From positions 682,001 through 746,000 of the forward strand of contig OX597843.1 in the NCBI GenBank assembly GCA_951406725.2: 64,000 bases of DNA, in the 5' to 3' direction. Of this stretch, positions 816 to 63,539 are shown one piece after another. The notes beneath the pieces were generated by a model that worked only from the letters and a program-made list of their open reading frames with translations, was not told where the DNA came from and searched no databases. Source of the stretch: Octopus vulgaris. Lineage: Eukaryota. Each line of letters starts with the position of its first letter. Positions within the stretch are counted from its first letter, which is position 1. A program made the translations under genes and the position numbers.

Positions 816-921
816 CTGTGTGCTAATACGTGTGTTGCTACAGTGATTGTGCTGAAGTCCAGCCGTTCCTGGATAATTGATACACTTTCATTGGAGCAAA
901 TCTTTGATTGTGGGGAGTATC
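816..921 (-). CDS. M12B active-site exon (GYSPQSKICSNESVSIIQERLDFSTITVATHVLAH); zinc motif lacks the catalytic Glu
   Basis: Acceptor ctgcttcttttactag|GA TAC, donor CAC AG|gtaatg. 106 nt, phase 1/2. Aligns to the reprolysin G.A.....C....S.SI.E......T.AHELGH consensus. The gene continues beyond position 1. Confidence 0.92.
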
Positions 922-1983: not shown

Positions 1984-2021
1984 CTCTCAGTTTTTTCTGT
2001 CCATTTTCAAACACTTCAAGG
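1984..2021 (-). CDS. M12B domain 38-nt small exon ((I)LEVFENGQKKLR(G))
   Basis: Acceptor cttgttttgttattgatag|C, donor AGA G|gtaagt. Phase 2/1 is exactly what is needed to join the exons at 4445 and 921. Confidence 0.85.
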
Positions 2022-4444: not shown

Positions 4445-4584
4445 ATGGTGAAGAACATAGCATGGTCATGTTCTGGAAGATTCCTTCGTTTTGACCAGTG
4501 TGTTAGGGCTTTGAGGAACTGGTCGGTTTTAATCTCGGTCTTTTGACGTCCGTCTTTGTCCAGCCACAGTCTTGACTTGGGGTC
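4445..4584 (-). CDS. M12B domain exon (DPKSRLWLDKDGRQKTEIKTDQFLKALTHWSKRRNLPEHDHAMFFT)
   Basis: Acceptor ttttgttttctgttgcag|GAC, donor ACC AT|gtacga. 140 nt, phase 0/2. Contains L..F..W and P.HDHAM.FT, hallmarks of ADAMTS-type domains. Confidence 0.92.
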
Positions 4585-8716: not shown

Positions 8717-9469
8717 GGAATACAGTTCCAGGAGGAAAGGACATAATAACATTATTTAGAAGGGCGTACTTCTTTTCTTGAGGGTGGCATGTGACCCTCA
8801 GCTGCCCTGGGTCCACCCCTTGAGTGCTTCTGTATGATTGTATATGTGTTATTTCTTTATTACCCATAACGAGCTGATGAAGATAAGAAACAAAGAACAC
8901 ATTGGGGTCATAAAATGCCCTCCACCCGCCAAAAAAAACGTATAATAAAATGAGACAGGTGAGAATGAAAGATGAAAGTGATGTTACCTGTGCCATCGGA
9001 TAGCATCACTTACCTGTCTTCTTTCCCAATGTCCTCTTCTAATAGTCTTCCGAAAAATTATTGTATATGTGTGTGTGTGTATTTATGTCTGAAATCGGAA
9101 GTGCAGGGGGCGAATTGTCTATAAAATCTGGTGACCCTATCAAGCGATCATAGATGACCTTTAGGATAATGTGTGAGTAGAATATATCCCTGAGAATACA
9201 GTTTCTTAAATCCAGCCAATGAATTAAGGTGTGATAGCTAACTTCAAGGCATATTCTTTTCTAATCTAGGTACAAGACCCAAAACTTTTGGGGAGGGGGC
9301 CGGTCAATTAGATCGACCCCAGTACACAACTGGTACTTGATTTATCAACTTCGAAATGACGGAAAGCAAAGTCGATCTCGGTGGAATTTGAATTCAGAAC
9401 GTAAAGACAGACGAAGTACCGCTAAGCATTTCGCCCAGCGTCCAAACATTCCTGCCACTTTGGGAATCT

Positions 9470-10410
9470 GGCCGGAAAATGAGTTGAACACCTTCTGTAA
9501 TTCATTCTGGATCTTGACAACGGTGTTAAAACTGTAACCTTTGAGATGCATTTTCATCTTGGAGAAGAGATGGAAGTCAACAGGTGCTACATCTGGCAAA
9601 TAGGGCAGGTGTGAAGTGATGCCATGTTGTTTTTGGTGAGAAAATCATGAGTGAGGCGCAGGAGTGGCTGTGTGGTAAGTAGCTTGCTAACCAACTACAT
9701 GGTTCTGGGTTCAGTCCCACTGCGCGGCACCTTGGGTAAGTGTCTTCTGCCATAGCCCCGGGCCGACCAAAGCCTTGTGAGTGGATTTGCAGACGGAAAC
9801 TGAAAGAAGCCTGTCGTATATATGTATATATATATATATATATGTGTGTGTGTATATGTTTGTGTGTCTGTGTTTGTCCCCCTAGCATTGCTTGACAACC
9901 GATGCTGGTGTGTTTACATCCCCGTAACTTAGCGGTTCGGCAAAAAAAGAGACCGATAGAATAAGTACTGGGCTTACAAAGAATAAGTCCCGGGGTCGAT
10001 TTGCTCGACTAAAGGTGGTGCTCCAGCATGGCCACAGTCAAATGACTGAAACAAGTAAAAGAGTAAAAAGAGTAAAGAGTGAGAAGATCTCGGTGAAGAA
10101 TTCAGCTCTTCATACTCCACAGATCCGGTCGCTTTCACCGAATATCGTCCCTCACACACTTCAAAACATTGTAGTAGAACTCTTAGTCAATGGTCTGGCC
10201 CCCAGGGAAGAATTCTTGATGCACAGTACCACATTTTCTGGGTGACACTTGTGGCAGGTCTTCCAGATCGACCATCATCTTCCAGGAACGTTCTTCCATT
10301 TTCAAAGAGCCTCTGACACTCAAAGCATTGCATACGATCCAATGCCTCATTGCTGTAAGCTTACCAAAGCCTGCTCAATGTCTCCATAGCTTTGGGGTTC
10401 GGCAAAAGAG
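9470..10410 (-). pseudogene. Mariner transposase relic interrupted by SINE A
   Basis: Decayed VVHQEFFPGGQT...FYYNVL...KRPDLW (10080-10230) and PDVAPVDFHLFSKMK (YSPDLAP motif region, ~9540-9600). Confidence 0.8.
9655..10080 (+). mobile_element. SINE family A, full length, inserted in a mariner relic (other + copies ~10761-11160, 15262-15712, 18361-18720, 34688-35110, 39005-39390)
   Basis: Near-identical to 36811-37226. Confidence 0.9.
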
Positions 10411-12867: not shown

Positions 12868-12945
12868 CTCATCGATGTAAAATCCTGCTAAGGTCACTCC
12901 AAGTTTTCTATTAGGAAGGGTCAGCGTCCTCATTCGAGTATCCAT
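12868..12945 (-). CDS. M12B domain exon (MDTRMRTLTLPNRKLGVTLAGFYIDE)
   Basis: Acceptor gtttgttttcag|ATG, donor GAG|gtcagt. 78 nt, phase 0/0. MD.R....(I/V).L.G..I pattern. Confidence 0.9.
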
Positions 12946-13234: not shown

Positions 13235-13404
13235 GTTATCATATCATTATTATTATTATTATTATTATTCAGATCATGGAGTTGAATTTAAGAGTGCATT
13301 ACTAACCCCAAGATTCCAAGTTCGATTCCAGGCAGTGACCTGAATAATGATGATGATGATAATAACAATAATAATAATAATAATAACAATAATAATAACA
13401 ATAG

Positions 13405-13684
13405 TAATGATTTTGAAGAGTGCGGAATAAATGATAATCAGACTGGGCAATGTCTGGTGAATATGGTTGGTGGGACATCGTTTTCCCATTCAATCTGCTC
13501 CAACCTTTGGAATGTCATCCTCGTTGTATGTGGCTGAGCATTATCCGAATGGAAGAACATCTTTCATCTTGAAACCAAAGATGGTTGTTTTTCTTCTAGC
13601 ACATGTGACGATGAATGGTTGTTATCGTTGTTGTCGTCATCACCACCAACACCATCATCATCATCATCATTAGATCCATCATCC

Positions 13685-13717
<33 letters not shown>

Positions 13718-13923
13718 TTTAACATTTGTTTCTTATGCGTGCATGGGTTGGATGTTTCGGTGGAATCCAATGGGTTGGAGGTTGCATTGATCTCTAGCAT
13801 CTGCTTTTGCATGGTTAAACTGCTGCAGCCTTTGGAATGTCATCCTCACTGTATGTGGCCAAGCATTATCCTGATGGAAGAACACCTTTCATCTTGAAAC
13901 CAAAGATGGTCGTTTTTCTTCTA
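13405..13923 (-). pseudogene. Mariner transposase relic, partly duplicated
   Basis: HQPYSPDIAQSDYHLFRTLQN in ORF 13302..13493. 95-bp duplicate at 13504-13598 and 13829-13923. Confidence 0.8.
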
Positions 13924-13988: not shown

Positions 13989-14079
13989 TCTATCGACCAT
14001 CGCAGCATAAAACTCCTGCATTTCTGTAATGGTCTCTTGCTTCCGGTTACCATTCTTTGTGCGCCCTTTGTTAAACCAC
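13989..14079 (-). CDS. M12B domain exon ((M)WFNKGRTKNGNRKQETITEMQEFYAAMVDR)
   Basis: Acceptor cttttattctcctgcag|G TGG, donor AGA|gtgagt. 91 nt, phase 2/0, fits both neighbours. Amphipathic helix expected at this position of the domain. Confidence 0.9.
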
Positions 14080-15496: not shown

Positions 15497-16268
15497 ATGT
15501 TTGTGTGTCTGTGTTTGTCCCCCAACATCGGTTGACAACCGATGCTGGTGTGTTTACGTCCCCGTAACTTAGCGGTTCGGCAAAAGAGACCGACAGAATA
15601 AGTACTGGGCTTACAAAAGAATAAGTCCCGGGGTCGATTTGCTCGAATAAAGGCGGTGCTCCAGCATGGCCACAGTCACATATAACTGAAACAAGTAAAA
15701 GAGTAAAAGAGTACTCATTTACAGTGGACTAGGCTGCAGCAATGTGAAGTGAAGAGTCTTGCTCAAGGACACAACACAGGAATTGAACCTAGGCACCTAC
15801 TCTTCATACTTGATCATGTACTTTAATGAGTTTTTAATGCATAATTAGAAAATTCTCGTTTCATTAATTAAGCTGACAGTAATTTAGGTGTTGTTGTTGT
15901 TGTTGTTGTTTATTTTTTGCTATATTTTTTTTCATGGTTGTCATGTGGGGATTGTCTTGTCTTTAGACATTATTAGATTTTATCAGTGACAGGGTTGCCG
16001 CTGCTACTACTACTGCTGCTGCTGATGATGATGATGCTACTGATGATGGTGGTGATTGTTGTGATGATAATGATGGTGGTGGTGGTTGTGGTGGTTATGA
16101 TGATGATGATGATGAACATGATGATAGCAGTGGCAGTAGTGGTGATGATGGTGCTGCTGCAGACAATGATGGTGATGATGATGATGATGATAGTGATGAT
16201 GATGATGATGATGGTGATGATGACGATGATGATGATGATGATGATAGTGATGATGATGATGGTGATGA

Positions 16269-16300
<32 letters not shown>

Positions 16301-16789
16301 TTGATGATGATGATGACGACGATGATGACAATGATGATGATGATGATGGTGGTGGTGGTGATGATGATGATGAGGATGATGATGATTATGGTGGTGATGA
16401 TGAATATGATAATGATGATGATGATGATGATGATGATAATGATAATGATGATGATGATGATGATGATGGTGGTGATGGTGATGACGGCAACTGTGATTGT
16501 GATGAGGGTGTGGACTAAGAGTGGAGATGGCGGTGGTAGTGGTGGTGATGATTAATGATTGATGATAGCAATTATTATGAATGTGAGTGAAATAAAGATC
16601 ATGATGATGATGCGGGTGGTGGGGTAGGGATGGTATTGTTGGTGGTGATGATGGTGATGATGCTGATGATTGATGATTGATGACTGATGATAGCGATTAT
16701 AGCCAATGTGCGTGTGATACTGATCATACGATGAACGTAGTGATGTTGATGGGGCTGGTCGTGGTGATGAGGATGACGACCATGATGAT

Positions 16790-17990
16790 GATGTGAATGA
16801 ATACAATGATGTTGATGATGATGATGATGGGGAAGAGGAGGAGGAAGAAAAGGAGGAAGAGGGTGATGATAATGGTAGAGGTGATGATGATGATGAGGAG
16901 GAGGAGGAGGAGGAGGAGGGGAAAGAGGAGAAAAGGGGAAGAGGGTGATGATAATGGTAGTGGTGGTGATGATGATGATGGTGATGATGATGATGAGGAG
17001 GAGGAGGAGGAGGAGAAGGAGGAAGAAGAAAAGGAGGAAGAAGAAAAGGAGGAAGAGGGTGATGATAATGGTAGAGGTGATGATGATGATGAGGAGGAGG
17101 AGGAGGGGAACGAGGGGGAAAAGGGGAAGAGGATGATGATAATGGTAGTGGTGGTGATGATGATAGTGATGATGATGGGGAGGAGGAGGAGAAGGAGAAA
17201 GAAGAAAAGGAGGAAGATGGTGATGATAATGGTAGAGGTGATGATGATGATGATGATGATGAGGAGGAGGAGGAGGAGGAGGAGGAGGGGAACGAGGAGG
17301 AAAAGGGGAAGAGGATGATGATAATGGTAGTGGTGGTGATGATGATGATGGTGATGATGATGGGGAGGAGGAGGAGAAGGAGAAAGAAGAAAAGGAGGAA
17401 GATGGTGATGATAATGGTAGAGGTGATGATGATGATGATGATGAGGAGGAGGAGGAGGAGGGGAACGAGGAGGAAAAGGGGAAGAGGATGATGATAATGG
17501 TAGTGGTGGTGATGATGATGATGATGATAGTGATGATGATGGGGAGGAGGAGGAGAAGGAGAAAGAAGAAAAGGAGGAAGATGGTGATGATAATGGTAGA
17601 GGTGATGATGATGATGAGGAGGAGGAGGAGGAGGAGGAGGAGGGGAACGAGGAGGAAAAGGGGAAGAGGATGATGATAATGGTAATTGTGATGATGATGG
17701 AGATGATGGTGATGATGATGGGGAGGAGGAGGAGAAGGAGAAAGAAGAAAAGGAGGAAGATGGTGATGATAATGGTAGAGGTGATGATGATGATGATGAT
17801 GAGGAGGAGGAGGAGGAGGAGGGGAACGAGGAGGAAAAGGGGAAGAGGATGATGATAATGGTAATTGTGATGATGATGGAGATGATGGTGATGATGATGG
17901 GGAGGAGGAGGAGAAGGAGAAAGAAGAAAAGGAGGAAGATGGTGATGATAATGGTAATTGTGATGATGATGGAGATGATGATGCTGGAGT
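16790..17990. repeat. Higher-order (GAT/GAG/GGT) purine-rich minisatellite
   Basis: Recurrent aggggaacgaggaggaaaaggggaagaggatgatgataatggtag units with ~170-180 bp period. Confidence 0.9.
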
Positions 17991-18087
17991 TTGTGGTAAT
18001 GGTGTGAGAATGGTGACGGTGGTGGTGGTGAAGACGATGTTGGTGTTGATGGTGATAGTGGTGATGATGTTGATGTTGAAGATGGTA

Positions 18088-18118
<31 letters not shown>

Positions 18119-18725
18119 TAATGATGGTGAATGATAACAGCTTTTACTGCAACAATAGACACGAAACTGATTTTGTCAATTTAAAAAAGAAAAGCAAAAT
18201 ACAAAAAAATAAAATAAAATAACTGCAAACAAAATATACACAAAACATAATAAATTGGAAACAAATGAATTTAGGTGAGAATGGCTGAGAGGAGAGACAT
18301 GAGGGAGAGGTGGGGTGCAGGAAAATTATGAAATTATGAGTATGTTTTTATATATATATAGGCGCAGGAGTGGCTGTGTGGTAAGAAGCTTGCTTACCAA
18401 CCACATGGTTCCGGGTTCAGTCCCACTGCGTGGCATCTTGGGCAAGTGTCTTCTGCTATAGCCTCGGGCCGACCAAAGCCTTGTGAGTGGATTTGGTAGA
18501 CGGAAACTGAAAGAAGCCCGTTATATATATATGTATATATATATATGTGTGTGTGATTGTGTGTCTGTTTGTCCCCCTAGCATTGCTTGACAACCGATAC
18601 TGGTGTGTTTACGTCCCCGTAACTTAGCGGTTCGGCAAAAGAGACCGATAGAATAAGTACTGAGCTTACAAAGAATAAGTCCCGGGGTCGATTTGCTCAA
18701 CTAAAGGCAGTGCTCCAGCAAGTAA

Positions 18726-22513: not shown

Positions 22514-23029
22514 TCAGACAGATATACACACATATATATATATATGTGTGTGAAGGTGCAATGGCCTAGTGGTTAGGGCAGCAGACTTGCGGTCGCAGGA
22601 TTGCGGTTTCGATTCCCAGACCGGGCGTTGTGAGTGTTTGAGCGAAAACACCTAAAAGCTCCACGAGGCTCTGGCAGGGGGTGGTGATCCCTGCTGTACT
22701 CTTTCACCACTCTTTCTCCCACTCTTTCTTCTGCTGGCCTGCTCGATTAGCCAGCAGGGTGGCGTCGTTCGAAGGCTAAAACAATGCGAACGCATTGTGA
22801 CCAGCGATGTGTAACAACATCTGATAGCCTGGTCGGTCACGTGATCAGGTGATATATATATGTATGTATCAATGATTTTATGATTAGTTGTAATAAAAGC
22901 AATTCTGCATTAATCTGTTGGGTTACACTATAATATTGCAGAGTACAAATTTGCTATTCTTAAGCAAAAATGTTGTTGACAGTGACATCGAAGTTCCGGC
23001 TTGCTAAGCTGTAATGGTATAGTATTGTT

Positions 23030-23056
23030 GCTGGTGGTGGTGGTGGTAGTGGTTTG

Positions 23057-23098
<42 letters not shown>

Positions 23099-23158
23099 AT
23101 GGTGGTGGTGGTGGTAGTAGTAATAGTAGTGGTGGTGGTGGTAGTAGTAGTAGTGGTG

Positions 23159-23208
<50 letters not shown>

Positions 23209-24640
23209 GGTGGTAGTGGTGGTAGTAGAAGTAGTAGTAGTGGTGGTGGTGGTGGTAGTGGTGGTAGTAGTAGTAGTGGTGGTAGTAGTGGTGGTGGTGG
23301 TGGTGATGGTAGAAGTTGTGGCGCTAGCAGTGGTGGTGGTGGTGGTGGTGGTGATTTAAAAATGGCCATCTTAATAATCATCTCTGATTCTTATGCTAAT
23401 TAATCAGCTGTTGTTGTTGTTCCTGTTGTTGATGTCTGTGGTCTGATCAAAATCTAATCAATTAGCAAAATAATTAGCGAAAGAATCAGTGTGTTGGGGT
23501 GGGGGCGGGGGCAGGAGGACAGAGATAGTGGTGTGGGTGGTGGTTGCTATTGTTCATGGTGATGGTGATGCTAGTGATGATGGTGGTGGTAGAGGTCTTG
23601 GTGGTGGTGGTAATGGTGGTGTTGGTGGTGGTAGTGGTAGTGGTAATGGAGGTGGTGGTGTTGGTGGCGGTAATGGAGGTGGTGGTGTTGGTGGCGTTGG
23701 TGGCGGTAATGGAGGTGGTGGTGTTGGTGGCAGTAATGGTGGTGGTGGTGTTGGTGGTGGTAATGGTTGTGGTGGTGAGGGTAGTGGTGATGGTGGTGGT
23801 AGAGGTGTTGGTGGTGGTGGTGGTGGTAATGGTAGTGATGGTGATGCTAGTGATGATGATGGTGGTGGTGGTGGTGGTGGCAATGGAGGTGGTGGTAATG
23901 GTGGTGATGGTGGTGGTGGTGGTGGTGATGGCAGTGGTGATAGTGGCAGTGATAGCGGTCATGGGTGGTTGCAGTGGTGCTGGTTATGGGAGATCGATAT
24001 CGCTGGTGGTGGCGTTGGTGGCAGTGGCATTTGCCATGGTGGTGGTGGTGCTGATGTTGATGTTGGTATTGGTGTTAGTTGTAGTGGTATTTGCGGTTGT
24101 AGTGTTGGTTACAGTAGTGCTGGTGGCTGTTTATGATAGCTGTGTAGGAATCAGTGGTGGTGGTGGTGGTGGTAGTAGTGGTGGTGGTGGTGGTGGTGGT
24201 GTTGGTGGTGGTGGTGGTGGTGGTGGTGTTGGTGTTGGTGGTGGTGTTGGTGTTGGTGGTGGTGGTGGTGGTGGTGGTGGGTGGTGGTGGTGGTGGTGGT
24301 GGTGGTGGTGGTGGTGGTGGTGGTGGTGGTGGTGGTGGTGGTGGTGGTGGTGGTGTTGGTGTTGGTGTTGGTGGTGGTGTTGGTGGTGGTGTTGGTGGTG
24401 GTGTTGGTGGTGGTGGTGGTGGTGGTGGTGGTGGTGGTGGTGGTGGTGGTGTTGGTGGTGGTGTTGGTGGTGATGGTGGTGGTAGTGGTGGTGGTGGTGG
24501 TGTTGGTGGTGGTGGTGGTGGTGGTGGTGGTGGTGGTGGTAGTGGTGTTGGTGGTGGTGGTGGTGTTGGTGGTGGTGGTGGTGGTGGTGGTGGTGGTGGT
24601 GGTGGTGGTGGTGGTGGTGGTGGTGGTGGTGGTGGTGGTG
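23030..24640. repeat. Compound (GGT/AGT)n microsatellite field
   Basis: Direct inspection. Source of the poly-V/G/W/P pseudo-ORFs. Confidence 0.95.
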
Positions 24641-26088
24641 GTATTAGTATTGTTGCTGCTGCTACTGCTGCTGGGTTTCTTGTTGTTGTTGCTCTTCCTG
24701 TTGCAATTGTTCCAGTCAATGTTGTTGTTGCTATTGTTGTGCTTGTTATTCTTATTGTTGTCCCTCCGTTGTTACAATACAATCTCACAGTTTAAGCAAA
24801 TATTTTCTGTGAAGAGAGTTACTATTATTTCTTTTTTTTTTTTTACATTTAACACACGCTGGACGCACAGACAGACATACATACAAATTCAAATACAATG
24901 TAACACACACACACACACACACACAAGCACACACGCACACACACACACACAAGCACACACGCACACACACACACACACATACGATACGTACACACATGGT
25001 CATATGCACAGATTCCTACACACACACACAGAGGCATGCATGATACACATACACACATATACATAGACACATACACACATAGATACACACACAGTTCATG
25101 CACATACACATGTGTACATATGCACAGATTCCTACACACACATGCACACACACATGCATGCATGATACACATACACACATATACACAAAACACATAGACA
25201 CATACACACAGATACACACACACATACACAGTTCATGCACATACACATGTGTACATATGCACAGATTCCTACACACACACACACACACACACACAAAGCA
25301 TGCATGATACACAAACACACATATACAAAGATACACACACACATACACATGTGATACACATACACAGTTCATGCACACACACATGTGTACATAAGCACAG
25401 ATTCCTATACACACACACACACATGCAAACAGTGACGCACACACATAATGTGACATACACATACACTTGTAAGGACTAAGGACATATATACACACACACA
25501 AACACATATACTGTAGTGTCACACACTCACACATATAGCAACATACATACACATTCGTATATACGACATGTACACACACAAACATAGAGTTATACTCACA
25601 TATACACATATACACAGACAGACAAACAACATATACAGCACACACACATATATACACACATATATATTATTACAAACACACACATGCATGCACACACACA
25701 CATACTCACATAATGCACACACACATTGCATACATATACCAATACAAAAGCACAAATTCTCTTACACACACATACACATACAAACACAGACAACACACAC
25801 ACACACACACGCAAAATGCGCAGATGCAAACACACACATACAAACATAGATGTGCACAGATGCACACATACACACATACAAAAACAGATTTACACATACA
25901 TACATGCACAATGCACAAATGCACACACACACACACACACACACAAACACAGATACATGCACAATGCGCAGACACATACATATGCGCACACAATCTATAG
26001 GCACACGCATAAACTCAAAGATTAATATGAGCACACAAAATCTCTAACATACACATATATATACATACACATAACACACACATACACT

Positions 26089-26128
<40 letters not shown>

Positions 26129-26134
26129 TTATAC

Positions 26135-26182
<48 letters not shown>

Positions 26183-26330
26183 ATATATATATATATGTAT
26201 GTATGTATATATATATATATATATTTATACATACATATATATATATATGTATGTATGTTTATATATATATACACATATATATATATATGTATGTATTATA
26301 TATATATATATATATATATATTATACATAC

Positions 26331-26427
<97 letters not shown>

Positions 26428-26470
26428 TATATTTATATATATATTTATTCATATATATATATATATATAT

Positions 26471-26529
<59 letters not shown>

Positions 26530-27140
26530 CACGCACATATAAAACACAAGAAACTCAAAAATATATTAATACAAATATACAAAAGTTCCTACTTGCACAC
26601 ACACACACTTACATACACACACGCACACGTGCATACACACACACACACACACACACACACATAAATAGAGACAGGCCGTTGGACGCACAGACAGACAAAC
26701 AACAATGTGGCTCCATATCTTTGCTGCGATCTCAGTTGCATGGTGTCACCTGTAACATTTAGAAAGGTCAAAGATATGTAGACCAATATATCATCGCCGC
26801 TACTGCCACCTCCGCCATCACCATCATCACCATCATCACCAAAACTACCACCATCACCATCATCATCATCGCCACCACCACTACCACCACCATTATCATC
26901 ATCATTGCCACCACTATCACCATTGTTGTCTTCATCATCTCACCACTACCACCACCACCACCACCACCACCATCATCACTATCATCATCGCCACCACCAC
27001 TACCACCTCCATCATCATCATCATCATCACCACCACTATCACCAATACCACCACCACCATCATCATCATAACCACCACCACCACCACTACCACCACCATC
27101 ATCATTACCACCACTAACACCATTGTCGTCTTCATCATCT

Positions 27141-27172
<32 letters not shown>

Positions 27173-27623
27173 CCACTACCACCACCACCACCACCACCAC
27201 CACCACCACCACCACCACCATCATCACCACCACTACCACCTCCATCATCATCATCATCATTACCACCACTATCACCATTGTCATCTTCAATATCTCACCG
27301 CCACCATCACCACTACCACCACCACCACCACCACCACCACCATCATCACCGTCTCGCCACCCCTATCATCGTCATCATTCTTCATTGCCATCATTGTCAC
27401 CACCACCACCACCACCACTACTGTCACCATCATCATCGCCGTAACCATCACCACCTCTATCAATATCGTCATCGTCATCGTCATCACCGCCATTGCACCC
27501 ACTACCATCATCATCATCATCATCATCATCATCTTTACCATCAGCATCATAACACCATTTTTGTCATCGTCGTCGCCGTCGTCTTCATCATCACATTCAA
27601 ATGCAACAAGTGTGTAGAAACAT

Positions 27624-31322: not shown

Positions 31323-31677
31323 ATTTCGTAGACGGAGTAGTCTACCACCACCAGGAGTTGAACTTGCAATTCATGGACACCCCTCTTCCGCCTGCCCTTT
31401 GACTCAACCTCAGCCATTGCTGCTACTGCTGCTGCTGCTGCTGCTTCTGCTGCCGATGCTACTGCTGCTGGGGATGGTGCCGTGGGTGATGGAGATAGTA
31501 TCGATGTTGGTGAAGACGAAGATGTTGTTGTCGTTGTTGTTGATGGTGGTGGTGATGATGCAGCCACCGCTGATGGTGACGGTGGTGGTCGTGGTCGTCG
31601 TGATGATGAAGATGGTGATGCCGATCGTGATGGTGAGTCCTCCAGTTGGGTGGCCACCATGCTCGTTTTCACATCTG
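31323..31677 (-). CDS. ADAM/ADAMTS-like precursor: S/T/P/A-rich linker, furin site RRKR (31382-31393), start of metalloprotease domain ([19 protein letters not shown])
   Basis: Acceptor ctctctcattcag|CAG ATG (tandem NAGNAG), donor GAA AT|gtaagt. 355 nt, phase 1/2. RxKR followed by the reprolysin first strand (consensus vELLVVvD). Confidence 0.92.
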
Positions 31678-34140: not shown

Positions 34141-34411
34141 CTTTTGAGGGCTTCTGGCGAATGAGGTCACCAAGTTCGCTGCCATCAATTGCTTGACCTT
34201 GATCCATCTGGCCATCGAGCCGACCCTTGAACTTGTCCTTAGTGGCTTTGCCCACCGGGGTTTCTGGATGTAAGGGTCGGCTAGGGTTTTGGTTTTGGTT
34301 TTGGAATAACAGGGGCTGCAGTGACAGCCCTTCCACTACATAGCACTGACTGGGTCGACCACTGCTGTGGGGCCATTGCTGTTGTTCTTGCTGTTGGCAG
34401 AGTGTGCCTAC
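34141..34411 (-). CDS. ADAM/ADAMTS-like precursor, prodomain exon (VGTLCQQQEQQQWPHSSGRPSQCYVVEGLSLQP...RQKPSK)
   Basis: Acceptor ctctcttacattgaacag|GTA GGC, donor AAA G|gtaggt. 271 nt, phase 0/1, open. Overlaps ORF 34091..34336. Confidence 0.85.
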
Positions 34412-38140: not shown

Positions 38141-38230
38141 CAGGAGATAATCACAGGTACCATTGGAACTCTTCACACATTGAAGGTAGAAAACACCATC
38201 TCCATTCACCACATCGTAGATAGCAACATT
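38141..38230 (-). CDS. ADAM/ADAMTS-like precursor, prodomain exon (NVAIYDVVNGDGVFYLQCVKSSNGTCDYLL)
   Basis: Acceptor ttttccacag|AAT, donor CTG|gtaagt. 90 nt, phase 0/0, open. The Y-D...C...C-L-(V)G pattern resembles invertebrate M12B prodomains. Confidence 0.85.
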
Positions 38231-46758: not shown

Positions 46759-46810
46759 CTGATTCTTACTACTAGCTCTATCTCTACTACTACCACTGGT
46801 ACCACTACTT

Positions 46811-46847
<37 letters not shown>

Positions 46848-47201
46848 CAGTTGTAGTAGTAGTCGTTGCACCAGTTGCACTAGTGGCACCAGCTGCAGAA
46901 GCTGCTGTGTCAGAGCCTGAGGACGCTGCACTCTGTCGTGGTGGCACGGGAATCTCTGGGCAAGGTTTCAATCCCACACCGCCTGCTCTTCTCTTCAGTA
47001 TCATTTGGATATGGAAGCTGCCGTAGTTGTTTCTAACATTATTGTTGTTGCTGTTGTTGTTGTTGTTAGTGCGGTTGTTGTTGCTGTCGTTGCTGCTGCT
47101 GCTGCTGCTACTGCTGATGTCCAGTGTGACAAGGGAGGGAATCACTGATGACTGTGGTTTGGTGGCGCTGGTCAGCGATGCGATACGCAACATCACTGGC
47201 T
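46759..47201 (-). CDS. ADAM/ADAMTS-like (M12B) precursor, first visible coding exon (prodomain N-terminal part with poly-S/N/T expansions)
   Basis: Acceptor tctattttctgttttgcag|AG CCA GTG ATG (phase 1). Donor AAT CAG|gtatga (phase 0). 443 nt open: xPVMLRIASLTSATKPQSSVIPSLVTLDI...GSFHIQMILKRR...SSKNQ. Phase matches the next exon. Confidence 0.75.
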
Positions 47202-47529: not shown

Positions 47530-48415
47530 GGTGGTGATGATGATGATGATGATGGTGATGGTGATGATGATGATGATGATGGTGGTGATGATGATGATGA
47601 TGATGATGGTGATGATGATGGTGATGATGATGATGATGATGATGATGGCAAAATACTTTCTATGTAATCTCAAGTTTTAAAAACAAACATAATTAAAAAA
47701 ATTTTTTTTTTAGGCATTCACTAGTACAACACTAAATACAAAACCAAATGTATGGCACACTAGGCATAACAACAATACAAACTTCCAACCTGTTGTCTCT
47801 TGAGGTCTCTGGGTGAGACTTGGAGCCAACTTGTACAAATATAAAGCAAAAGTCAAACATAGAATGAAAATAATAATAATAATTACAACAATAATAATAA
47901 TAGTAATAATCCTTTCTGCTATAGCCGTGTGTTGAAAAGAATTCTTGGAGGTTTGGATAATTCACCTTTGGAAACATGGGCGGTTCGTTCAACATCCTTA
48001 AAGAATCCCTTTTCAGGGACCTTTTGAGTGAGATGGGCTACTCAACCTGAAGAAAATTCTAACTGGGCCCCACCTGCAAGGTCATATATATATATTACGT
48101 GACCGACCAGACCATCAGATGTTGTTACACATCGCTGGTCACAATGCATTCGCATTGTTTTAGCCTTCGAATGACACCACCCCGCTGGCTAAGCGAGCAG
48201 GCCAACAGAAGAAAGAGTGGGAGAAAGAGTGGTGAAAGAGTACAGCAGGGATCACCACCCCCTGCCGGAGCCTCATGGAGCTTTTAGGTGTTTTCGCTCA
48301 ATAAACACTCACAACACCCGGTCTGGGAATCGAAACCGCGATCCTACGACCGCGAGTCCACTGCCCTAACCACTGGGCCATTGCGCCTCCACTCATATAT
48401 ATATATATATATATC

Positions 48416-48462
<47 letters not shown>

Positions 48463-48503
48463 CATATATATATATATACATATGTATATACATATATATA
48501 TAC

Positions 48504-48554
<51 letters not shown>

Positions 48555-48651
48555 CATATATACATATATATATATATATACAAATGATGATGATGATGAT
48601 GATGATATACATATATATATACATATATATATATATATACATATATATATC

Positions 48652-49895
48652 AGACTGTATGATGCATGTGTACGAACAGCCATGCTACATGGCAGCGAAA
48701 CATGGGCCGTGACTGCTGAGGACATGCGTAAGCTCGTGAGGAATGAAGCCAGTATGCTCCGATGGATGTGTAATGTCAGTGTACATACTCGACAGAGCGT
48801 TAGCACCTTGAGAGAAATGTTGTACCTAAGAAGCATCAGTTGTGGTGTGCAAGAGAGACGATTGCGCTGGTATGGTCATGTGGCGAGAATGGATGAAGAT
48901 AGGTGTGTGAGAAAGTGCCAATCCCTAGCAGTTGAGGGAACCCGTGGAAGAGGTAGACCCAGGAAAACCTGGGACGAGGTGGTGAAGCACAACCTTCGAA
49001 CTTTAGGCCTCACTGAGGAAATGACCAGAGACCGAGACCTTTGGAAATATTCTGTACGTGAGAAGACCAGGCAGGACAAGTGAGCCCAGCCCACTTATGA
49101 ATGCCTTTCCTCCCTTGGACACAAAGACCGGTTGAGGTAAGCGAAGTCGATATAGAACCTCATCCGACGACAGACACCCATGCCAACCCCCATGCTTGCG
49201 AAGACATGTTGGGGCAAGCGAAATCGAAATCGAAACCGAATTGAACCAGCCAGGATCCCTGGCCTGGTGGTACGTAAAAAGCACTATCCGACTCGTGGCC
49301 ATGGCACGTAAAATACTCCAATGCGACCGTACGACAGGCACCCATGCCAACCCCCTTTGCTTGTGAAGACATGTTGGGGCAAGCGAAATCGAAATCGAAT
49401 TGAACCAGCCAGGATCCCTGGTCTGGTGGTACGTAAAAAGCACTATCCGACTCGTGGCCGTGGCACGTAAAATACTCCAATGCGACCATACGACAGGCAC
49501 CCTTGCCAACCCCCTTTGCTTGTGAAGACATGTTGGGGCAAGCGAAATCGAAATCGAATTGAACCAGCCAGGATCCCTGGTCTGGTGGTACGTAAAAAGC
49601 ACTATCCGACTCGTGGCCGATGCCAGCACCGCCTCGACTGGGTTCCGTGCCGGTGGCACATAAAATACACCAATCTGACCGTGGCCGTTGCCAGCCCCGC
49701 CTGGCACCTGTGCAGGTGGCACGTAAAAAGCACCCACTACACTCACGGAGTGGTTGGCGTTAGGAAGGGCATCCAGCTGTAGAAACATTGCCAGATTAGA
49801 CTGGAGCCTGGTGCAGCCTTCTGGCTTCCCAGAACCCCGGTCGAACCGTCCAACCCATGCTAGCATGGAGAACGGACGTTAAACGACGATGATGA
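48652..49895 (+). mobile_element. 5'-truncated RTE-clade LINE: end of ORF plus 3' UTR with internal ~170-bp triplication and (GAT)n tail
   Basis: ORF 48682-49083 MLHGSETW...[12 protein letters not shown]...GRGRPRKTW is the typical RTE C-terminus. Ends ggacgttaaacgacgatgatgat. Confidence 0.9.
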
Positions 49896-52062: not shown

Positions 52063-52579
52063 CTAGCAGTATCGCCCGGCGTTGCTCAGGTTTGTAAGGG
52101 AAATAACTATATAAGCATTTTTAGAGAGTTACTTCCTTTATAGATGCCAATTCGGGCTTTCTTAGCCATTTCTGTTTTGGTGTCTTCAAGCCATGAAGTC
52201 GTTGTTCTAAAAGAACGCTGGTCTCCTTGACAACGCATTACGACGTTGATTTCTTTACACTCCCTTCCCCACAGCTTCACGAGGGAGGGAAGAAGGGGGA
52301 GAAGCAAACACAGGTGCAGGTGTTTGAGCGTGGACGCCAACTCCGCCGCCATCGACACACGAAAAATTATGCATTAAAATGGAATAAAAAATGATGTTAA
52401 ATTATTTTTAAAATCGTAGACTCATCGTAGACGCGCGCTAATACACAGACGAGCTCGATATTAATCACGACTATAAGATACCCGAATTTGGTTAAACTGC
52501 ACCGCAAAATGTGGGAATAGTTAGGAATCTAAATCGTAGGAGACAGACACTCACACAACTACAGTTTTATATATATAGA
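52063..52579 (-). mobile_element. Non-autonomous Helitron, same family as 41377-41771
   Basis: Same 5' TC and 3' hairpin-CTAG termini. Shares the ~190-bp 5' segment; the internal segment differs. Confidence 0.85.
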
Positions 52580-52664: not shown

Positions 52665-53025
52665 CCCTAGCGGTTGAGGGAACCTGTGGAAGAGGTAGAC
52701 CCAGGAAAACCTGGGATGAGGTGGTGAAGCATGACCTTCGAACATCAGGACTCACCGTGGCAATGACTAGTGACCGAGACCTTTGGAAGTATGCTGTGCC
52801 TGAGAAGACCCGGCAGGACAAGTAAGACCATAACCCGTGGCCTCTACCGGGGACGTAGTCAGTCCACTTATGCATACCTTTCCTTCTTGTGACACAAACT
52901 CTACTTGTGAAGACCTGTTGAGGCAAGTGAGAATCGAAATCGAAATCGATCAAAAATCAATGGAAATTGTGGTTGTAATACCAGTGCCGGTGGCACGTAA
53001 GAGAACCATCCGAACGTGGCCGTTG
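52665..53025 (+). mobile_element. RTE LINE fragment (ORF end plus part of 3' UTR)
   Basis: Similar to 48924-49085 (ccctagcggttgagggaacctgtggaagaggtagacccaggaaaacctggga...). Confidence 0.85.
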
Positions 53026-53235
53026 CTACTATATCTACTACTACTACTACAATGGCAACTACTATTTCTACTACTACTACTACTACTACTGTTTCTACTA
53101 CTACTACTACTACTGCTACTGCTACTACTACTACTACTACCACCACCACCACCACAACCACTATTTCTACTACTACTACTACTGCTGCTACTACTGCTAT
53201 TACTACTACTACTACTACTATTCCTACTACTGCTG

Positions 53236-53268
<33 letters not shown>

Positions 53269-53489
53269 TTTCTACTACTACTACTACTGCTACTACTACT
53301 ACTACCACCACCACCATCATCACTACCTCTCTTTCTCTCGCCCCAGCTTCCACCATTCTCACCACCACCATCTTCTGCTGACTATCACTCCTTTCCCCTC
53401 TCTCTTTGCCTCTACCCTCTCTTCAACAACACCACCACCACCACCAATATCTTCTGCTCCTTCCTCTCCCCGCTCTTCACCATCTCCAC

Positions 53490-54660
53490 CACTGCCACCA
53501 ATACCTTCTCCTGGCCATCACTCCCTCCTCTCCCCCTCTCTCTCTCTCTCTCCCTGCTCTTCACCAGCCACACCACCACCAATATCTTCTACTGACCATC
53601 ACTCTCTCCTCTCCCCTCTCTCTGTAAATCCTCTCTTCACCCCCCCAATACCTTCTCCTGGCCATCACTCCCTCCTCTCCACTCCTCTCTCTGTATCTCT
53701 CTCTCTCTTCACCACCACCACCACCACCAATACCTTCTGCTGGCCATCACTCCCTCCTCTCCCCTCTATCTCTCTCTCTCTCTGTATCTCTCCTCTCTTC
53801 ACCACCACCACCACCACCACCACCAATACCTTCTCCTGGCCATCACTCCCTCCTCTCCCCTCTATCTCTCTCTCTCTCTGTATCTCTCCTCTCTTCACCA
53901 CCACCACCACCACCAATACCTTCTGCTGACCATCACTCCCTCCTCTCCCCTCTATCTCTCTCTCTCTCTGTATCTCTCCTCTCTTCACCACCACCACCAC
54001 CACCAATACCTTCTGCTGACCATCACTCCCTCCTCTCCCCTCTATCTCTCTCTCTCTCTGTATCTCTCCTCTCTTCACCACCACCACCACCACCACCACC
54101 AATTCTGCTGACCATCACTCCCTCCTCTCCTCTATCTCTCTCTCTCTCTGTATCTCTCCTCTCTTCACCACCACCACCACCACCAATACCTTCTGCTGAC
54201 CATCACTCCCTCCTCTCCCCTCTCTCTCTCTCTCTCCACCACCACCACCAATACCTTCTGCTGACCATCACTCCCTCCTCTCCCTTCCCCTTTCTCTCTC
54301 TCCTCTCCTCTCTTCACCACCACCACCCCCAATACCTTCTGCTGACCATCACTCCCTCCGCTCCACCACCACCACCACCACCACCACCACCACCACCACC
54401 ACCAATACCTTCTGCTGACCATCACTCCCTCCTCTCCCCTCTATCTCTCCTCTCTTCACCACCACCACCACCACCAATACCTTCTGCTGACCATCACTCC
54501 CTCCTCTCCCCTCTATCTCTCTCTGTATCTCTCCTCTCTTCAACACCACCACCCCCAATGCCTTCTGCTGACCATCACTCCCTCCTCTCCTCTCTTCACC
54601 ACCACCCCCAATACATTCTCCTGGCCATCACTCCCTCCTCTCCCTTCCCCTTTCTCTATC
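53490..54660. repeat. Pyrimidine-rich minisatellite, ~60-90 bp variable unit
   Basis: Repeated caccaataccttctgctgaccatcactccctcctctcccctctatctctc. Confidence 0.92.
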
Positions 54661-55125
54661 TCCACTCCCTACTATCTCTGCCACACCACCACCACCACCA
54701 CCACCACCTTACCCTATCCCTACCACCAAAAATGCTGGAATTTTTTTTCTTTTTTTTTTCCCGATCCTTGCGGCAACCGAACTTATTGAACTTGCTTACA
54801 AACTGTCAAAGAGAACTTCGAACCGAATATCGAACGCCACCCCCACCACCCCGACAAACCCTCCACCCTCACCACCGACACTTCTCTCTCTCTCTCTGTC
54901 CCTCCCCCCTCCGCTCCTTCATCGATCTCCCACGTCTGAGAGGTACCCTCTTTGCAAAGTATGTCACAGTTGCTGTTGTTGTTGTTGTTGCTGTTGTTGT
55001 TGTTGCTTTTGATGCTGTTGTCATTACTACAACGACTAATGTTGTTGTTGCTCTTCTACTCATTGTCGTTGTTGTTGTTGTTGTTATAGCAGTTATTGTT
55101 GCCTTTGATGTTGTAATTATTACTA

Positions 55126-55210
<85 letters not shown>

Positions 55211-55422
55211 TTTTGTTATTACTGTTATTACTATAATCATCATCATTATCACCATGGTCATCATCAATGTAAATTTTGTTGTAGTTATTAATATTATCAT
55301 CATTATTATTATTATTATTATTATTATCATTATTTTTATTATTATTATTATTATTATTATTAATATTATTATTATTATCATTATTATTATTATTTTTATT
55401 ATTATCATCATTATTATTATTA

Positions 55423-55459
<37 letters not shown>

Positions 55460-55485
55460 CATCATTATTTTTATTATTATTATTA

Positions 55486-55558
<73 letters not shown>

Positions 55559-55599
55559 CATTATCATCATTATTATTATTATTATCATTATTATTACTA

Positions 55600-55640
<41 letters not shown>

Positions 55641-56196
55641 GCTATCATCATTAGCATTATTTCTGCTGTTCCTGCTGATGCAGCTGTTGTTACTTTTGAT
55701 GTTGTTTCTGTTGATATTTCTTTTGATGTTGTTGTTGTTGTTGTTGTTGTAGTTATTATGTCTACCTATGTTCTATGTTCCTACAGTACTCCAAATATTG
55801 CTGTCGCCTCCAACCACCACCAGCGATAACAGCGCCACCACAACCACCACCACCACCACCACAAACAACAACAGAAACAACAACAACATACGCCACTACA
55901 GCCATACCATGCGCCTCCCTGTCTCCCCCCTGTACCCACTACACCTGCCACTCATGGCCACCGCTTTCAGCTACGACAATCTCTATTGATCTAATACCAA
56001 TCCTTCTTCCCCCACTCTCTCTCGCTGTCTATATATCCTTCTTTCTTTTCTTTCTCTTTCCCTCCCACCATCACCTCTTTTATTTCTGTGTTGTTTAGAT
56101 TGTTTACAAAACTCCTTGGTGTATATGATGTATATGCATATATACATATACAACATACCAATATACAACCTACATACATACACACATATTTACATG

Positions 56197-60724: not shown

Positions 60725-61193
60725 TATATATATATCATATATATGTATGTATATATAATATATATAATATATATATGTGTGTGAATGATATATCTATTTT
60801 AATGTTTGTGTGTATATACACAATATACATGACCTAGCATACAATACGAAGATACACATTCACACATACATACACATACTCTCAAGCAGTATGCAACACA
60901 GGTACATATAAACTATACATGCATACCACTATACATACATACATACGCACGTATACATATATGCATACACACATACGCGTACATACATACAGTGCAAACA
61001 GAACGTGGTGTGAGAGGATATCAAATAAATAAATAAATAATAAATACCAGGAAAATTGCGAAATGTGGACATTTTCCCACGATAAACACCATCACTGCTA
61101 TCACCTATACTACTATAACTGCTACCACTATACCACTAACAATACTACTACTAATGTTTCCACTACTACTCCTACTACTACTACTACTACTAC

Positions 61194-61231
<38 letters not shown>

Positions 61232-61481
61232 CTATCACTACTACTACAACTGCTGCTGTTACCTACTACTACCACTACTTCTACACCTACTACTACTACT
61301 ACTACTACTACTACTATCACTCATACTAGTCCTAACACTACTACTACAACTAATACTACTAATACTACTAATACTACTACCACCACCACAACCACTACTA
61401 CCCCCACCACAACAACCACAACTACTACTACTACTAACACTAATACTAGTACTAACACTACTACTACAACTAATACTACAG

Positions 61482-61512
<31 letters not shown>

Positions 61513-61531
61513 CACAACCACAACTACCACA

Positions 61532-61572
<41 letters not shown>

Positions 61573-62088
61573 ATCAGCCATCCCCTTTACCACCAATCTT
61601 ACCACTACTACCACTGTAGCCACTACCTCTCTGCCCCCTTACCAGACAGTCCAGATGCCCTTCTCTCCTACTCCTCCTCCTTACAGGTCATTATAGAATG
61701 TGGAAAGGCTGTGTTGCTTAGCAACCCATCAACCAGAAGACACTTGAATGTTCAACAAAAGCAGGACATCACCACCACCACCACCTACAGCAAACAATAA
61801 CATCAAGAATGCCAATACCACCACGACCACCACCACCACAAGTACAAGCGCTGCAATCACCACCACCACCACCACCACCAGCTACAATATTAATAATCAT
61901 AACAGCAATATTGGTGATGATGTTAATAATGATGATGATTGTGGTGGTGGTGATGATGATGATGATGGTGGTGGTGATGATGATGATGGTGATGATGATG
62001 ATGATGGTGATGATAATGATGGTGTTGATAATTATGATGATAATGATGATGATGGTGATGACAATGATGATGATGATTATGATGATGG

Positions 62089-62122
<34 letters not shown>

Positions 62123-62130
62123 TGATGATG

Positions 62131-62162
<32 letters not shown>

Positions 62163-62203
62163 GATGATGGTGATGATGATGGTGATGATGATGATGACGA
62201 TGG

Positions 62204-62247
<44 letters not shown>

Positions 62248-62287
62248 GTGATGGTGATGATGATGATGATGATTATGGATGATGATG

Positions 62288-62319
<32 letters not shown>

Positions 62320-62381
62320 GACGATGGTGATGATGACGATGAGGATGATGATGGTGATGATGATGATGATGGTGGTGGTGG

Positions 62382-62414
<33 letters not shown>

Positions 62415-62467
62415 CGATGATAATTTTAATATTAATAACAGAAATAACAACAACAACAACAATAATA

Positions 62468-62503
<36 letters not shown>

Positions 62504-63539
62504 GTAAGAAAAACCACAACATTAACAGCTACAGCCACCACCACCACCACCACCACCACAAACAACAACAACAGCAAAAGCAAAAGCAACAAAATGATAA
62601 CCAAACAAATATTCAACAATAACAACCACAACAACATTTTTTCGATATGTTTTTCCAATTCGAAAACTGCAGGGAGTTGTCTGGAATGGTGGAGGAGGAG
62701 GAAGTAGCATGGAAGATTTTCGTCTGCTAATTCTAACAGGTCACACAACCAGAGAGAGAGAGAGGTCTGTCTCACTGTCTTGGTGGTGGTGGCGGTGGTG
62801 GTTGTGGTGGTGGTGGTAGTTATGGCGGTGGTGGTGGTTGGTGGTGGTTGTGGTGGTGGTGGTGGTGGTTGTGGTAGTTGTGGTAGTTGAGGTGGTGGTG
62901 GTGGTGGTGGTTTTGGTAGTTGTGGTGGTGGTGGTTGTTGTTGTTGTGGTGGTGGTGTTGTTGTGGTGGTGGTGGTGGTTGAGGTGGTGATGGTGTTGTG
63001 GTGGTTGTGGTGGTGGTGGTGGTGGTGGCGGATGGTGGTGGCAGTGGTGGTGTTGTCATTGGCGTTGGTGATGGTTTTGGAAATTGAAGTGGTTGTGATA
63101 GATATGGTGGTAGTTGTGATGGTAGTGGTGGTGGTGGTGGTGATGGTAATAATAGCAGTGATGAAGATGATGATGATAATGATGATGATAATGATGATGA
63201 GGATGATGATGAGGATGATGATGAGGATGATGATAATAACAGTGATGATGGGAATGCTGATGATGGTGGTGGTCGTGGTGGTGTTGTTAATTATAATGAC
63301 AATAACAACAATAACAGCAATGACGATGATGATGGTAATGATGATGATGATGATGACAATTATGACACTCCTTCACTTGACTCATAAAAGTTAAGGGAGG
63401 GACGTAGTTTTTTTCCCCTTTTGTTGCAAGCAGCAAGCGCCAAAATGCTTCCAGTTGCTGCCATGATGTAAGCAGACACTCCCAAACAACAAGATGCCAC
63501 TTACAACACTATCCTAACAGCACTATCTAAGCCATACTC

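Follow-up and report, generated by a model that had tools for sequence, protein, structure and literature searches.

A Predicted Zinc-Retaining M12B Pseudo-Protease of Octopus with Valine in Place of the Catalytic Glutamate

Metzincins use the glutamate of the zinc motif HExxHxxGxxH as catalytic base (PMC4885070). Mutants in this residue are inactive although their active-site geometry is preserved (PMC11674741), and activity was also lost when it was replaced in Sona (E475A; PMC4989167). The closest described systems are M12B proteins in which the general base alone has been lost: ADAM7 (HQLGHNLGMQHD) and ADAM29 (HHLGHNLGMNHD) of mammals (PMC11266112, Table 2), and ADAM15 of frogs and birds, where Glu was exchanged for Gln (PMC4550289). 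These proteins are treated as non-proteolytic (PMC11266112, PMC4550289). ADAM11, ADAM22, ADAM23 and UNC-71 of C. elegans are non-catalytic M12B proteins that act by binding (PMC11266112). The action of MIG-17 depends on catalysis (PMC11232982), and Sona consists of a prodomain, a protease domain, a disintegrin-like and a cysteine-rich domain (PMC4989167). Here and below, the papers are cited from excerpts.

The gene described here, from Octopus vulgaris, resembles ADAM7, ADAM29 and ADAM15 in that its M12B domain has lost the general base alone and has kept the three histidines and the Met-turn. No paper on it was found in the open literature by accession (six accessions) or by topic.

Structure of the gene and architecture of the predicted protein

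The analysed stretch of 64,000 nucleotides (G000:C30:682001-746000, hereafter the window) is part of a 2.8-Gb genome and was examined together with 200 kb of downstream and 100 kb of upstream flanking sequence. Sequence matches agree with an octopus origin: in a protein search the active-site exon matched a single O. bimaculoides protein, and one paralogue contains an ORF identical in every letter to an O. vulgaris entry. The gene lies on the minus strand and was assembled from 18 exons, nine of them in the window, into a single open frame of 934 residues ending in a stop codon. The features are listed in the order of transcription, in window numbering unless a contig is given.

46759..47201, minus strand: 5'-most exon identified; predicted prodomain carrying runs of Asn, Ser and Thr; starts at an acceptor
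38141..38230, minus strand: predicted prodomain exon (splice signals and frame; weak profile match, E 0.29)
34141..34411, minus strand: predicted prodomain exon (splice signals and frame only)
31323..31674, minus strand: S/T/P/A-rich end of the prodomain, RRKR and first strand VQLLVVVD (homology and splice signals)
31393-31382, minus strand: furin-type site RRKR, within exon 31674-31323
31360-31358, minus strand: Gln of VQLLVVVD, at the position of the putative calcium ligand, usually Glu or Asp
13989..14079, minus strand: M12B-domain exon (WFNKGR...MVDR)
12868..12945, minus strand: M12B-domain exon (MDTRMR...YIDE)
4445..4584, minus strand: M12B-domain exon (DPKSR...EHDHAMFFT)
1984..2021, minus strand: M12B-domain exon (LEVFENGQKKLR), joined to exon 921-816 in contigs of runs X6 and X17
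816..921, minus strand: active-site exon with edge strand GYSPQ and helix TITVATHVLAH (zinc His1 and His2), flanked by AG and GT
827..829, minus strand: Val codon GTA where HExxH has its general-base Glu; Val in P0001, P0003 and P0004, Gln in P0049
1..815, minus strand: intron running out of the window
G000:C30:681145-651887, minus strand: nine further exons, downstream and outside the window
G000:C30:681145-680981, minus strand: exon with the third zinc His, the Asp and the Met-turn, the next exon beyond the window
to G000:C30:651887, minus strand: later downstream exons encoding the ADAM_CR domain, four Cys repeats, an S/T stalk, a hydrophobic tail and the stop

All 17 introns have GT-AG ends, and neither a stop codon nor a frameshift was found across the 18 exons. 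Thus, the earlier note was right that the nine exons of the window splice in frame without stops; a break further downstream, which would have marked a decaying gene, was looked for, and the gene was intact to its stop. For the prodomain, four exons (47201 to 31323) were defined by splice signals and reading frame, with clear homology for exon 31674-31323 alone, which matched a profile of the N-termini of homologues (E 5.4e-6). Since exon 47201-46759 starts at an acceptor, the first exon must lie further upstream. A start or signal-peptide exon was not found by a strict scan from 47300 to about 164000 (window numbering), and a looser scan of the same region was swamped by simple repeats. One candidate, at 52352, was rejected because it sits in a repeated element.

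The window is rich in repeats. Very long tri- and dinucleotide tracts occupy positions 1-760, 16000-18200, 23000-27400, 52800-55800 and 61000-63400, giving rise to many spurious low-complexity open reading frames and to strong local GC skew. The segments 13305-13888, 9348-9644 and 10190-10360 (all minus strand) and 48370-49080 (plus strand) resemble, judged by eye, parts of a Tc1/mariner transposase and the 3' terminus of a LINE of the RTE type; these transposon-like intronic fragments had no Pfam match at E 0.01. Triplet-repeat runs coding for Asn, Ser, Thr, Ala and Met also occur in frame within the gene (46759-47201, 31323-31674 and G000:C30:652040-651887), and the Thr and Met runs of the last exon vary in length among the three Octopus sequences.

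The predicted protein begins with a low-complexity prodomain (361 residues found, 59% S/T/N/Q/A/P) ending in RRKR at residue 362, and continues with the M12B domain, the ADAM_CR domain, the four Cys repeats, the S/T stalk and the hydrophobic tail. In the O. sinensis orthologue P0003 the reprolysin family PF01421 scored 47.7 bits (cut-off 20.8). ADAM_CR (PF17771, E 2e-17) follows directly after the M domain. An AlphaFold2 model of P0003 (pLDDT 89.3, pTM 0.89) had its best Foldseek matches in the M and Cys-rich domains of ADAMTS1, 4 and 5 (E 1.6e-14 to ADAMTS1), and the best sequence matches of the M plus ADAM_CR unit were ADAMTS5, 13 and 1. By its predicted fold, the protein belongs to M12B. 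Pfam detected neither TSP1 nor a spacer in P0004 or P0002, and no WxxWxxCS was present in the 934-residue frame; lacking a thrombospondin repeat, the protein is not a true ADAMTS. Pfam families of the ADAM-type disintegrin and EGF-like domains were likewise not found, and the six residues after the last hydrophobic run leave no room for a cytoplasmic tail. The label 'ADAM/ADAMTS-like' of the earlier note needs correction: judged by domain content, the protein is neither an ADAM nor an ADAMTS.

The four Cys repeats end in CCxxC at residues 728, 769, 808 and 849. Repeats of this kind, of about 40 residues (C-x-x-G-D...C...C-Y...CCxxC), occur in 0 to 20 copies per homologue. They are predicted to fold (pLDDT 81-97, residues 11-120 of P0002); they had no Pfam match, and none of 48,161 solved chains matched at Z>=2. 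Comparison with ESM Atlas clusters named ShKT gave 0.85-0.87, under 0.9 and to be taken as a lead only. The repeat (residues 1-118 of P0002 and homologues) is an unnamed domain.

The C-terminus, with its S/T stalk, small residues and hydrophobic end, may be a GPI signal. The hydrophobicity of the tail is moderate (best 19-residue means 1.31 and 1.44) and a Thr run interrupts it; the related proteins L023, L024, P0028 and P0183 also have short hydrophobic C-terminal tails. For the secretion proposed in the earlier note no signal exon was found, and the C-terminus suggests a membrane tether.

The active site, its orthologues and its family

The earlier reading of the active-site helix as HVLAH, with the Val codon GTA at 829-827, was confirmed by the sequence of exon 921-816. 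The full zinc motif is HVLAHSLGARHD: the three zinc histidines, the subsequent Asp and the Met-turn are kept, and the general-base Glu after His1 is absent. The next exon (C30:681145-680981), which had lain beyond the earlier note, contains SLGARHD and YIMSP, so that besides the two histidines and the furin site seen before, the third His is also retained (the Met column of the Met-turn is conserved in 97% of the intact homologues). Under the genetic code, the codon GUA would still encode Val after A-to-I editing, and the claim that editing cannot restore Glu stands. As Val cannot serve as a base, the protein is read as a probable pseudo-protease, binding without cutting.

A second change, from Glu to Gln in the first strand (VQLLVVVD), had also been pointed out before and was corroborated. 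Among 172 rows examined, the strand was found in 111, and in 108 of these the position was Glu or Asp; the window protein was the sole one with Gln. The acidic first-strand residue of M12B calcium site I is therefore lost, its role as a calcium ligand being assigned by analogy to Glu201 of VAP2B (PMC4885070).

Because the case turns on a single codon, sequencing runs were compared at position 828, four of the 24 listed (X2, X4, X6 and X17), each from a different study. X6 and X17 come from different studies and different organisms, and both span 816-923 with no differing letter. In both, the active-site exon is spliced on both sides and the contigs continue into the adjacent exon at either end, which shows that the source molecules were spliced; this was read from intron-less joins, neither run being recorded as RNA. 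X2 and X4 extend across 828 into the intron and do not differ at 828. The base was thus the same in all four runs, two spliced and two genomic; run contigs drop rare variants, and a rare allele would escape. X2 lists no difference inside the active-site exon; at 937 and 955, in the intron just upstream of it, this run has a 6-base deletion and one substitution. A genome search yielded no second near-identical copy, intronless or otherwise, which makes a processed copy unlikely. The reading of the Val codon as an assembly error is refuted, and the gene is real, conserved and expressed.

The orthologue of O. sinensis (P0003) had no difference in 287 residues and that of O. bimaculoides (P0004) seven in 547, both with Val at the general-base position. 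In Argonauta hians (P0049) this position is Gln, the motif reads HQLAHSLGAHHD, and identity is 69%; the whole Argonauta evidence is a single 176-residue gene-model fragment, obtained by a HMMER search of 1.84 billion representatives. P0049 grouped with the Octopus proteins with SH-aLRT 100 in a tree of 43 sequences and with FastTree support of 1.0 in one of 183, from which duplicates and nine of the 11 bird ADAMTS1 rows had been left out. Every Octopus sequence that spans these sites retains RRKR, the three His, Asp and Met-turn; P0049 retains the same set apart from RRKR, for which it gave no evidence.

Since the residue is non-acidic in both octopod lineages but differs between them, Glu was lost either once, before the Octopus/argonaut split, or on two occasions once catalysis no longer mattered. 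If Octopodidae lie outside Argonautoidea, the Octopus-Argonauta split is bracketed by the Argonauta-Tremoctopus split at 46 (29-68) million years and the Cirrata-Incirrata split at 101 (90-121) million years (PMC7104719); the excerpt of 10.1101/2021.11.08.467834 held no date for it. No squid, cuttlefish or nautilus orthologue was found in word-limited searches and among the best 150 of 1157 HMMER matches; species names were known for 14 of these 150, and decapod absence is weak evidence. The cuttlefish protein P0028 (HEIAH) was rejected as an orthologue (27% identity; placement near the octopod gene with SH-aLRT 86 and FastTree 0.63), and it was treated, on this weak support, as a paralogue or an unresolved placement.

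The family of the window gene is large, comprises mollusc and annelid members, and has M12B, ADAM_CR and Cys repeats in the same order. P0005 of Argopecten, P0046 of Liolophura and P0007 of Mytilus share this order and the repeats at 25-38% identity; in bivalves the C-terminus consists of a transmembrane helix and a cytoplasmic tail, whereas the window gene ends in a short hydrophobic tail. After 11 bird ADAMTS1 rows and the listed near-duplicates had been dropped, 172 rows were counted. Glu and the three His (HExxHxxxxxH) were kept in 150, four had Glu with His lost, and one was gapped. The remaining 17 were without Glu, and 14 of them had also lost one or more His; the Glu-less rows with all three His were only the window gene, P0049 and the unrelated P0137. 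Dead members being common in the family, the loss is less surprising. Degenerate zinc motifs of the Q-Q-x-x-R type were seen in P0101, P0128, P0135, P0145, P0147 and P0152, and of the H-Y/H-I-A type in P0011, P0060 and P0085, freshwater mussels included; by their motifs these groups appear to be several independent pseudoprotease lineages. In the genome of O. vulgaris at least four paralogues are present (the counts are lower bounds).

L022:1483-3468, G000:C17, minus strand: intronless, Glu-bearing (HELGHSLGVLHD), no hydrophobic tail
L023:496-2421, G000:C8, plus strand: intronless, zinc motif fully lost (QLIGRSVGIPFD)
L024:1357-3354, G000:C24, minus strand: intronless, zinc motif fully lost (KMIAQNIGLTAD)
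L025:1073-1677, G000:C5:2.417 Mb, plus strand: spliced, with HEIGH; two exons seen

L022, L023 and L024 form one intronless clade (SH-aLRT 99.5), suggesting an old retrocopy that later expanded. L023 and L024 are intact and retain the Met-turn, the cysteines, an N-terminal hydrophobic leader and a hydrophobic tail. L022, which is 93.8% identical to P0195 of O. bimaculoides, is the likeliest soluble active member to judge from its sequence. L025 has an intron after the second His, in the same place as the window gene.

Amino-acid controls were used in place of dN/dS for estimating constraint. Against O. bimaculoides, separated from O. vulgaris by about 34 million years (10.1101/2023.05.16.540928), the mature region had four differences in 468 residues and the Glu-bearing paralogue L022 16 in 427 (Fisher p=0.005). 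Over 175 columns, Octopus and Argonauta were 69% identical, compared with 92% in the same columns for L022 and P0139 (species not identified). Columns in which Octopus and Argonauta differ (54) were more variable than those in which they agree (121; mean entropy 2.89 vs 2.16, p=3e-5), and the stem branch of the octopod gene was long (0.73-1.04). The low Argonauta identity and the long stem indicate a past episode of relaxed or redirected constraint. The gene would thus have changed quickly at some point and appears now to be tightly held in Octopus. The window protein keeps 58 of 67 family-conserved columns, compared with 40 of 66 and 39 of 64 in the two fully dead paralogues, a score biased towards the window gene, which had served as the query for collecting the homologues.

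Proposed function and alternative readings

Taken together, the protein is probably a zinc-retaining pseudo-protease, likely tethered to the cell surface, that binds without cutting; its inactivity, zinc binding and anchor we infer from sequence. It would enter the secretory path by means of the first exon, still unfound, and cleavage at RRKR by a furin-type convertase would release the low-complexity prodomain. M12B and ADAM_CR would then adopt the fold of their counterparts in ADAMTS1, 4 and 5 and bind zinc. Without Glu the zinc-bound water would not be activated, and peptide cleavage would be lost or negligible. The cleft, ADAM_CR and the Cys repeats, carried on the S/T stalk with its GPI-like tail, could bind a matrix or cell-surface ligand. 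The most likely role would be that of an adhesion receptor, or of a decoy for substrates or inhibitors of the Glu-bearing paralogues. A location at the cell surface is probable since the cephalopod paralogues have hydrophobic tails and the bivalve relatives transmembrane helices. That all zinc ligands were kept while other dead paralogues lost theirs hints that the site is still in use.

A more specific form of this proposal, possible though unlikely, is an octopod surface receptor, derived from one member of a lophotrochozoan ADAMTS-like family, with the zinc site as a ligand pocket, trapping a substrate or an inhibitor of the active paralogues. The general-base position would then have been freed before the Octopus/argonaut split, with the zinc ligands under selection, in contrast to the other dead paralogues of this genome.

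It is rather improbable that the M12B domain is just a folded spacer or trafficking module, with structural zinc, and that function resides in ADAM_CR and the Cys repeats. Sperm ADAMs with a seemingly superfluous pseudopeptidase domain, and ADAM22, which binds via a surface other than the pseudo-active site (both PMC11266112), offer precedents; the fast change of the M domain between Octopus and Argonauta and the confidently predicted fold of the Cys repeats would agree with them. However, L023, L024 and other dead members have dropped histidines yet kept the fold residues, so the fold seems not to need zinc, and the M plus ADAM_CR region differs from that of O. bimaculoides at only two of 308 residues.

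The retention of the three His, Asp and Met-turn in Octopus and Argonauta, and of RRKR in Octopus, could also mean that the protein is a slow protease, or one of narrow specificity, in which the intact zinc site would work with a different base or rely on substrate-assisted catalysis, and the gene is more conserved within Octopus than its Glu-bearing paralogue. We consider this distinctly improbable: Val cannot be the base, the position accepts both Val and Gln, and metzincin Glu mutants are inactive (PMC11674741, PMC4989167). A family-conserved Glu 13 residues before His1 (74% of intact homologues) is Gln here; it is Gln also in the Glu-bearing paralogue and so offers no replacement base.

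Very improbable is a non-enzymatic role in the secretion of the posterior salivary (venom) gland. A reprolysin (M12B) is presumably expressed in this gland of octopods (PMC7656900) and metalloproteases occur in the gland proteome of O. vulgaris (PMC7693380), but the window gene is not named in the excerpts of either paper, and the O. bimaculoides accessions and the active-site peptide had no match in one supplement of PMC7693380, where identifiers may differ. The S/T stalk and the hydrophobic tail are in keeping with tethering, and the tail-less, Glu-bearing L022 is a more natural candidate.

Finally, the chance that the Val codon is an error or a private allele, or the gene a decaying pseudogene, is negligible: the long triplet-repeat runs in the prodomain exons and the last exon and the failure of the upstream scans to find a first exon speak for it, but against it stand the same base in four studies, Val in two other Octopus species and Gln in Argonauta, 18 exons without a stop or frameshift, an identity of 98.7% with O. 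bimaculoides (547 residues) and the lack of a second near-identical copy in the genome search.

Comparison with known M12B proteins

The results correct the annotation of the orthologues, which are called ADAMTS18, mig-17-like ('metalloprotease mig-17-like' is the NCBI name of the O. sinensis model) or 'peptidase M12B', yet are without the base and the thrombospondin repeat. Vertebrate ADAMTS1, 4, 5 and 13 are the best sequence and fold matches, at about 21% identity; they have Glu, a thrombospondin type-1 repeat and a spacer, whereas the window gene has none of these. The domain order also fits that of the short, ADAMTS-like MIG-17 and Sona, which lack the thrombospondin repeat and may or may not share descent with the window gene. 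MIG-17 carries a PLAC domain, for which the window-gene protein had no Pfam match. MIG-17 and Sona are both secreted and need catalytic activity, in contrast to the window protein without Glu (PMC11232982, PMC4989167).

The earlier note had named ADAM11, ADAM22 and ADAM23 as precedents. Their mode of action and that of UNC-71, non-catalytic binding, holds as a functional model for the window protein. As structural precedents they are less apt, as they have ADAM architecture and have also lost zinc histidines (QTLGQ, QSLAH, QSLAQ, QSIGH; PMC11266112) whereas the window gene keeps its own. With three His, Asp and Met-turn kept, the closer precedents are ADAM7, ADAM29 and ADAM15. These have disintegrin, EGF-like, transmembrane and cytosolic parts, which the window gene lacks, and the loss is independent, to Val in Octopus; the Argonauta orthologue shares the HQ pattern of frog and bird ADAM15.

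With Glu-only losses already known in ADAM7, ADAM29 and ADAM15, no new class of system is described. What the locus offers is one genome and one unstudied family with two Glu-bearing paralogues, one Glu-only loss and two fully degenerate members, a set that permits a direct test of whether zinc-keeping pseudoproteases use the cleft for binding. Intact, expressed and conserved, with Glu lost and the His triad kept, the predicted protein fits an M12B pseudopeptidase of the ADAM7/ADAM29 type.
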